A DNA stretch of 31,453 bases from Anaerolineales bacterium UBA1136 (lineage in GTDB: Bacteria > Chloroflexota > Anaerolineae > Anaerolineales > UBA11657). The notes beneath the pieces are model-generated. The model ran no database searches and was not told the origin of the DNA. It saw only the letters and a list, made by a program, of their open reading frames with translations. Where the stretch lies: positions 10,027-41,479 of the forward strand of contig DCAJ01000016.1 in the NCBI GenBank assembly GCA_002311455.1, written 5' to 3'. Positions 26,861 through 27,714 of the stretch are shown here, piece by piece; positions within the stretch are counted from its first letter, which is position 1; each line of letters starts with the position of its first letter. The position numbers and the translations under genes are program-made.

Positions 26861-27714
26861 TAAGAGTCAATTAGTCGGTTTGTAAGAGAGTCCAACTCCT
26901 CGTTGGAGTAAAAATATATAACTAAACGTCCAGAACCATTGCGGGTACGGTGAAGTCTTATTTTAGTGCCAACTGAGTTACGCAAGCGGTCCTCTAGGTC
27001 TATTTCGTCTCTCGGTCTTTCTGCCCCATATGTGGGTTTTCTGGTAGTGTTACCCATTCCCTGGACGATTTTCTCGGTTTGACGGACATTTAATCTTTCT
27101 GTAGCTATCTTACTTAGTACATACTCTTGGTCATCAGGCTTGGAGATTCCTAATATAGCTCTAGCATGACCTTCGGTAATACGTCCTTTAGATAGTGCAG
27201 TTTGTACAGATTCAGAAAGGCGCAACAATCTTATAGTATTGCTAATGGTAGTGCGGCTTTTACCTACCTGTTTAGATATTTCATCATGTGACATACCAAA
27301 ATCTTCAACTAGAGAGTTGTAAGCGTGTGCTGTCTCCAAAGAATTAAGGTTGCTACGTTGAATATTTTCTATTAGTGCCAATTCCAGCATTTCAGCATCT
27401 GTAGGAGTATCTCTAACAACGGCTGGTATAGTATGCATTTCTACAATAGATGCAGCTTGCAATCGTCTTTGCCCAGCTATTAACGTGAATTCACCAGTGT
27501 TTTCCGTACGCGCTATTACTATAGGCTGCAAAATACCGTGTTTTCGTATAGATTCGGCCAATTCTGCAAGTTCCTCTGTGTCCACCGTAGAGCGGGGCTG
27601 CCACGGGTTTAATCGTATGGATGTAATAGCAATTTGAGAAACACCTTGACCATCACGTGTGTTAGATGGTATAAGAGCCTCTAGGCCACGCCCAAGTCCT
27701 CGTTTGATAGCCAT
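26860..27714 (-). CDS. parB: Chromosome partitioning protein ParB/Spo0J (GQRR variant)
   Basis: RGLGRGLEAL N-terminal ParA-binding peptide, QPR, GILQPI, AGQRR, LIENIQR, HTH GKSRTTISN, EGHARA, C-terminal dimerisation region. Confidence 0.95.
   Translation of the reverse strand: MAIKRGLGRGLEALIPSNTRDGQGVSQIAITSIRLNPWQPRSTVDTEELAELAESIRKHGILQPIVIARTENTGEFTLIAGQRRLQAASIVEMHTIPAVVRDTPTDAEMLELALIENIQRSNLNSLETAHAYNSLVEDFGMSHDEISKQVGKSRTTISNTIRLLRLSESVQTALSKGRITEGHARAILGISKPDDQEYVLSKIATERLNVRQTEKIVQGMGNTTRKPTYGAERPRDEIDLEDRLRNSVGTKIRLHRTRNGSGRLVIYFYSNEELDSLTNRLIDS

Follow-up and report, generated by a model that had tools for sequence, protein, structure and literature searches.

The sole chromosomal ParB of a marine Anaerolineales bacterium and its family carries glutamine or histidine at the position of the proposed catalytic glutamate

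The window, that is the whole stretch of 31,453 nt that was analysed, belongs to a metagenome-assembled genome (MAG) that totals 2.02 Mb over 126 contigs and is 84% complete. Its minus strand carries, in this order, a BamB-like beta-propeller gene, yidC, jag/khpB, parA, parB and an amidohydrolase gene. The features discussed here are the following.

29380..30333, minus strand: yidC (60KD_IMP)
28670..29335, minus strand: jag/khpB (Jag_N, KH and R3H)
27820..28590, minus strand: parA, a Soj-type ATPase with the deviant Walker A motif KGGVGKT (Pfam AAA_31 3.9e-56, CbiA, ParA, MipZ)
26860..27714, minus strand: parB, 284 aa, a three-domain chromosomal ParB (Pfam, TIGR00180 and PDB matches)
27682..27696, minus strand: ParA-binding peptide LGRGL, residues 7-11 (motif definition per PMC12704722)
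27592..27600, minus strand: P-motif 1, QPR, intact (Q39-R41); Q39 is the second catalytic residue (M. xanthus Q52, C. crescentus Q58)
27454..27474, minus strand: box II (P-motif 2), residues 81-87, GQRRLQA for GERRxRA
27469..27471, minus strand: codon CAA of Q82, aligned with the proposed general-base Glu (B. subtilis E78, C. crescentus E102, M. xanthus E93)
27457..27459, minus strand: codon CAA of Q86, at the position of the GERRxR Arg (M. xanthus R97, hydrogen-bonded to the Glu)
27355..27369, minus strand: box III (P-motif 3), ENIQR, intact (E116-R120)
27349..27351, minus strand: codon of N122, at the position of B. subtilis D117, directly after box III

The parA gene lies 105 bases upstream of parB on the same strand, so that parB directly follows it, and the canonical chromosomal parAB position that had been predicted from the DNA (yidC - jag/khpB - parA - parB) was recovered. 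At 26858-26860, the parB stop codon shares one base with the start codon (ATG) of the amidohydrolase ORF that follows it (25250-26860), an overlap that suggests translational coupling or co-transcription of the two genes. All three expected domains were detected in the parB product (ParB_N 4.4e-28, HTH_ParB 4.6e-35 and ParB_C 2.9e-09). With TIGR00180 it reached 180 bits against a cut-off of 58, as a canonical chromosomal ParB does, and chromosomal ParB/Spo0J proteins were its top matches when phmmer was run against all PDB chains (E 3e-50 to 1e-47). The peptide LGRGL conforms to the published ParA-binding consensus, (L/F/I)G(K/R)G(L/F/I) (PMC12704722). The original prediction had described QPR, the IEN region (within ENIQR, 116-120), the HTH and this peptide as intact, and all were found so.

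A second, GERR-type ParB had also been proposed as something to look for. None was found in 13/13 genomes of the family, each of which holds exactly one above-threshold ParB_N gene, including the genomes that are 93% and 95% complete; most of the genomes compared are incomplete MAGs. One genome only, G001, has a sub-threshold ParB_N-like match, with an internal TGA.

We searched for the cognate parS site (TGTTNCACGTGAAACA). Two perfect, intergenic copies (TGTTTCACGTGAAACA) lie 37 bp apart on contig C52 of genome G000 (C52:11374-11389 and C52:11411-11426), about 4 kb from a DnaA-like ORF (C52:15210-16076, minus strand) and thus near the origin. No site with two mismatches or fewer was present in the 31,453-nt window. 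The parAB genes are on contig C104 and the parS pair on C52, and the two may not be adjacent in the genome. Perfect or one-mismatch parS sites were observed in 9/13 family genomes, and a gene with an SMC hinge is present in the genome. We take the window's ParB to be a functional protein, the only chromosomal ParB of this marine Anaerolineales bacterium, acting with ParA and the two parS sites. A link between the number of parS sites and the residue at position 82 was considered and rejected: one or two sites per genome are typical across the order whatever the residue. Two genomes of another family of the order, f13, both with Gln at this position, have five perfect sites each, mostly clustered on one contig (G024, C301:27223-27661 and C445:185-358; G053, C110:83-767 and C412:1242-1257).

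Translation confirmed the earlier reading of GQRRLQA at residues 81-87, with Q82 encoded by CAA (27471-27469). The interval first assigned to the motif, 27457-27474, covers G81 to Q86; the full seven residues occupy 27454-27474. In phmmer alignments to PDB chains, Q82 falls, with no gaps nearby, on the GERR Glu of T. thermophilus Spo0J (1vz0), B. subtilis ParB (6sdk, E78), H. pylori ParB (4umk) and Noc (7ol9), the aligned box II sequences being GERRYRA, GERRFRA, GERRLRA and GERRWRA respectively. Because these alignments are ungapped, Q82 and N122 are the homologues of E78 and D117 in B. subtilis, respectively. The predicted equivalence with E78 is thus borne out on solved structures, and it extends to C. 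crescentus E102 and M. xanthus E93.

The remainder of the pocket is intact. The residues that C. crescentus ParB requires, as judged by mutagenesis, to bind CTP or to close (S74, G79, R60, R103, R104, E135, N136 and R139) correspond to S55, G60, R41, R83, R84, E116, N117 and R120, all present and invariant in the family, as are Q39 and G81. Of the two residues expected in a hydrolysing ParB, the protein therefore has the catalytic Gln of P-motif 1 (Q39) and lacks the catalytic Glu of box II (Q82). For comparison we took 195 ParBs from outside the family, 46 of them from its order and 149 standing for clusters at 50% identity; in this set, 78 positions are at least 80% conserved. Only two of these positions are altered in every family member, namely 82 (E to Q or H) and 122 (D to N). 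Both changes replace an acidic residue by a neutral one and both lie inside the CTP-binding domain. Asn occupies position 122 in 13/13 family members and Asp in 177/195 of the other ParBs. Published descriptions were used to place Q82, Q86 and N122 relative to one another in space. None of the 46 other members of the order has Asn at 122. Some ten residues past Q82, where the box II helix ends, E92 (27439-27441) stands where 89% of the other ParBs have Gly; Glu, Asp or Gln is found there in both Gln-bearing genera of the family (10/13 genomes).

GAA and CAA differ by one base, and the genome is a MAG split over 126 contigs, so we weighed whether the codon might be an error of sequencing, assembly or binning, or be confined to this one MAG. 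At least part of the stretch is carried by 19 public runs from 15 studies, and no RNA run is listed among them. Four runs, each from a different study of 2014-2024 (hydrothermal-vent, marine and seawater metagenomes), have contigs that cover the Q82 codon, and it is identical in all of them; one or more of the four may be the source sample. This answers the proposed codon check: the codon is not an assembly error. Over the 561 bases compared across runs, the sole variant was a C>T at 27494 in one run. Nor is the substitution private, as the proposed survey of related genomes made clear: Gln is found in five other species of the genus, and Glu is absent from 13/13 species of the family (Gln in 10, His in 3), these being every family genome in the comparison set. 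The window's genus has Gln throughout, the second genus (4 species) reads GQRRLKA and the third (3 species) GHRRWQA. Since His is one nucleotide step from Gln and two from Glu, the likely path was from E through Q to H. Five genomes write Gln as CAA and five as CAG; the three with His use CAC. The 120 nearest 90%-identity clusters include 71 with GQRR (54) or GHRR (17), whose source names are Anaerolineales, Anaerolineaceae or Chloroflexi MAGs, many of them from Tara Oceans. The artefact reading, to which we assign a negligible probability, is refuted by the multi-study contigs, the family-wide Gln or His and these near clusters.

Pairwise dN/dS values were 0.06-0.17 within the three family genera. 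These data demonstrate that parB is under purifying selection and that the Glu-less state is fixed across the family. They also bear on whether ParABS has ceased to segregate the chromosome in these organisms, its ParB either drifting or serving as a static parS-binding or SMC-loading factor. Such a fate could be envisaged in small genomes of about 2 Mb, and B. subtilis EQ mutants retain SMC recruitment and sporulate normally (PMC8494293). It is at odds with the dN/dS values, with the conservation of the ParA-binding peptide, the CTP-binding residues, the HTH and the C-terminal domain, with the intact and adjacent parA and with the retention of parS. We regard decay or repurposing as highly improbable; it and the artefact are effectively excluded.

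The distribution of the substitution was then followed outside the family, with family, genus and order groups handled under anonymous codes (e.g. f1, f8, f13) and the order name inferred from what the sources of close homologues are called. Three families of the order have genomes in which another residue stands for Glu: 13/13 in the window's family, 2/2 in f13 (both Gln) and 18/58 in f8. The f8 genomes have E in 40, Q in 11, A in 3, D in 2, G in 1 and H in 1, and five of its genera are mixed. Variants within genera of f8 (loci L065-L119) include GARRLEA beside GERRLEA and GGRRLEA beside GERRLEA, as well as GDRRLQA, GHRRLQA and GQRRLQA. The other 15 families of the order keep Glu in 41/41 genomes. 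Among 97 Chloroflexota genomes outside the order, Glu was found in 95 and His in 2. The 149 representatives of diverse clusters, which are the best-scoring ones against the window's ParB and so biased to query-like proteins, have E in 144, the rest being A (3), Q (1) and H (1). Three of these five exceptions were looked up, and all stand beside parA, one of them in an mnmE-gidA-gidB-parA-parB cluster; Glu-less ParBs of chromosomal type therefore occur elsewhere at about 3%. In two other Chloroflexota lineages with closed or nearly closed genomes of 1.4-2.4 Mb, f30 and f37, the window query gave ParB matches at E 1e-35 in 0/4 and 0/7 genomes, and these lineages may be without a canonical ParB.

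A tree of 113 ParBs of the order was built without columns 82, 86 and 122. On it, Glu and non-Glu states must have interchanged at least 12 times, and well-supported branches force at least 7 of these changes; the tree is one of ParB genes, found by a short search, and not of species. Glu has thus changed independently at least 7 times in the order. No report of natural GQRR, GHRR or GARR chromosomal ParBs was found in the literature searched, and the main text of a 2025 survey of the ParB-CTPase fold is silent on the motif and on the Glu (PMC12704722). The replacement of Glu in three families of the order is new here.

What this residue does has been established by mutagenesis in other bacteria, and the literature to which the original prediction referred (mutants that bind CTP, close, hydrolyse poorly and spread further) proved correct. 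B. subtilis E78Q shows no appreciable CTP hydrolysis but has wild-type CTP affinity, N-gate closure and parS loading, with a longer residence on DNA; Ala or His at the same position gave similar initial results (PMC8494293). In vivo, E78Q leads to wider spreading and weaker foci and leaves cells severely sick without Smc (PMC8494293). C. crescentus E102A is clamp-locked, with an off-rate about 15-fold slower, and does not complement (PMC8367383). In M. xanthus, E93 is the proposed general base, acting via a water wire, and forms hydrogen bonds with Q52 and with R97, the Arg of GERRxR (bioRxiv 10.1101/2021.05.05.442810). In E93A, which also spreads further, turnover is drastically reduced and the residual activity is possibly substrate-assisted; CTPase-deficient M. 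xanthus ParBs spread further and are lethal (bioRxiv 10.1101/2021.05.05.442810).

Because the published E78Q, E102A and E93A mutants lose their CTPase, the natural substitution is most readily read as giving a slow or non-hydrolysing clamp, and the ParB clamp of this family is probably very slow at hydrolysing CTP, or does not hydrolyse it. Slow hydrolysis with preserved binding and closure is expected, since the pocket keeps all known binding and closure residues but has Gln for the general-base Glu. The Glu-less ParB would still bind CTP, close at parS and slide; its CTP hydrolysis would be far slower than in GERR-type ParBs; and release would occur mainly through spontaneous opening of the N-gate or residual substrate-assisted hydrolysis. 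From the substitution we infer both that hydrolysis is lost or slowed and how the clamp would be released. A CTP-binding, parS-loaded sliding clamp with strongly slowed hydrolysis, released by spontaneous gate opening or residual hydrolysis, is in our judgement the best explanation, held with slightly better than even confidence. A fully dead CTPase would need compensation, because CTPase-deficient ParBs do not sustain viable cells in M. xanthus and Caulobacter, and none was found.

The residue four positions after the Glu is also relevant here. The original prediction had noted Q86; Gln is indeed at the position of the Arg, but this is nothing special to the protein, as most of the order is without that Arg. 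Arg is present at +4 in 119/149 diverse ParBs (80%) versus 11/114 in the order, where the position is otherwise mainly Q (54), E (36), K (6) or L (6). Over 263 sequences, Glu is lost in 2/130 with the +4 Arg versus 36/133 without it, a contrast that kinship inflates. Losses of Glu are thus seen almost only where the +4 Arg is already gone, and the missing Arg may be a permissive background. It is possibly permissive but not sufficient, because the 15 families that keep Glu are also mostly without the Arg.

These observations could be an indication of a rewired active site, in which the Glu-Arg pair has been dismantled in the order, Glu is not required and E to Q is nearly neutral, a possibility that we take seriously but consider rather less than even. 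Hydrolysis would then be slow but roughly normal, sustained, perhaps, by Q39, E116 and a water network, or by a Gln or His that orients the water. In other NTPases, such as Ras (Q61) and EF-Tu (H84), Gln or His positions the attacking water. Besides the two Arg contrasts above, this reading draws on the hydrogen bonds of the M. xanthus Glu with the +4 Arg and with Q52, on the repeated changes in the tree and the mixed genera, as for a weakly constrained site, and on the A and G variants of f8, all of which carry Glu at +4 (GARRLEA, GGRRLEA). The variation within f8 genera indeed weighs against a slow clamp: Glu could have ceased to be the catalytic base in the order, with hydrolysis proceeding by another route. 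The repeated replacement of Glu, even within genera, fits a dispensable CTPase and an active site that no longer needs Glu equally well.

Against such rewiring, three phylogenetically distant ParBs all need the Glu. In the window's family, both 82 and 86 are non-acidic (GQRRLQA, GQRRLKA, GHRRWQA) and the acidic D122 is lost as well. Column scans comparing the family with the 195 ParBs, the three families f1, f8 and f13 with the rest of the order, and non-Glu with Glu members of f8 revealed no acidic gain near the pocket, and no candidate replacement base was found. Losing the Arg is not by itself enough to free the site, because the 15 families mostly without it keep Glu in all their genomes. 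The substitutions observed are only Q, H, A, D and G, and since K and V are never seen the box II Glu site is not unconstrained. D122N was also considered as a general partner of Glu loss and rejected as weak: outside the family, Asn is found in 2/8 Glu-less versus 14/187 Glu-bearing ParBs, kinship being uncontrolled.

The slow-clamp reading matters because hydrolysis of CTP by ParB is currently seen as the timer by which clamps are recycled and partition complexes kept compact. Here a whole family has, as its sole ParB and under purifying selection, a protein of the type known as a laboratory "mutant", whose equivalents are lethal in M. xanthus and non-complementing in Caulobacter. A bolder reading, to which we give less than even odds, is that chromosomal ParABS here and in several related Anaerolineales lineages runs on an essentially non-hydrolysing clamp, turned over by spontaneous opening, nucleotide exchange or an unloading factor. 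If this is true, CTP hydrolysis would not be a universal requirement of chromosomal ParABS. With these ParBs one can ask, in natural proteins, whether the system can do without hydrolysis, by what route clamps then come off and which backgrounds tolerate its loss, and the genera that have both Glu and Glu-less orthologues (E/Q, E/A, E/D, E/G) offer ready-made near-isogenic pairs for biochemistry.

With the canonical ParB/Spo0J CTPase clamps (B. subtilis 6SDK, C. crescentus 7BM8/6T1F, M. xanthus 7BNK, T. thermophilus 1VZ0), the window's ParB shares the three domains, the ParA-binding peptide, P-motifs 1 and 3 and the HTH. It also has in common with them the G and the two R of box II, the parAB operon beside yidC-jag and the canonical 16-bp parS near dnaA. 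It differs from them in having Gln for the box II Glu, Gln for the +4 Arg and Asn for the Asp after box III. Noc belongs to a close paralogue family and aligns with a high score (TIGR04285 220.9 bits; PDB 7OL9, E 2.6e-46). This identity was rejected, the TIGR04285 score lying under the cut-off of 315; moreover, Noc keeps GERR, whereas the window's protein has a ParA-binding peptide and the parAB operon position.

The engineered proteins B. subtilis E78Q (also E78A and E78H), C. crescentus E102A and M. xanthus E93A are altered at the same residue as Q82. E78Q is the very same substitution, and the sister genus with His is the equivalent of E78H. The engineered mutants come at a cost to fitness, being lethal in M. 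xanthus, unable to complement in Caulobacter and synthetic-sick with delta-smc in B. subtilis, whereas in the window's family the state occurs naturally, is fixed and is maintained by purifying selection. A precedent in nature that favours the slow-clamp reading is VirB of Shigella flexneri, a CTP clamp with the ParB fold that has only one of the two catalytic residues; its measured kcat is about 0.1 per min, and its release has been proposed to occur by spontaneous opening (PMC10770331). VirB, PadC and KorB have weak or no CTPase, and KorB is only a distant match to the window's ParB (E 2.9e-12). These three are plasmid-borne or accessory regulators, whereas the protein described here is a chromosomal ParB with ParA and parS.
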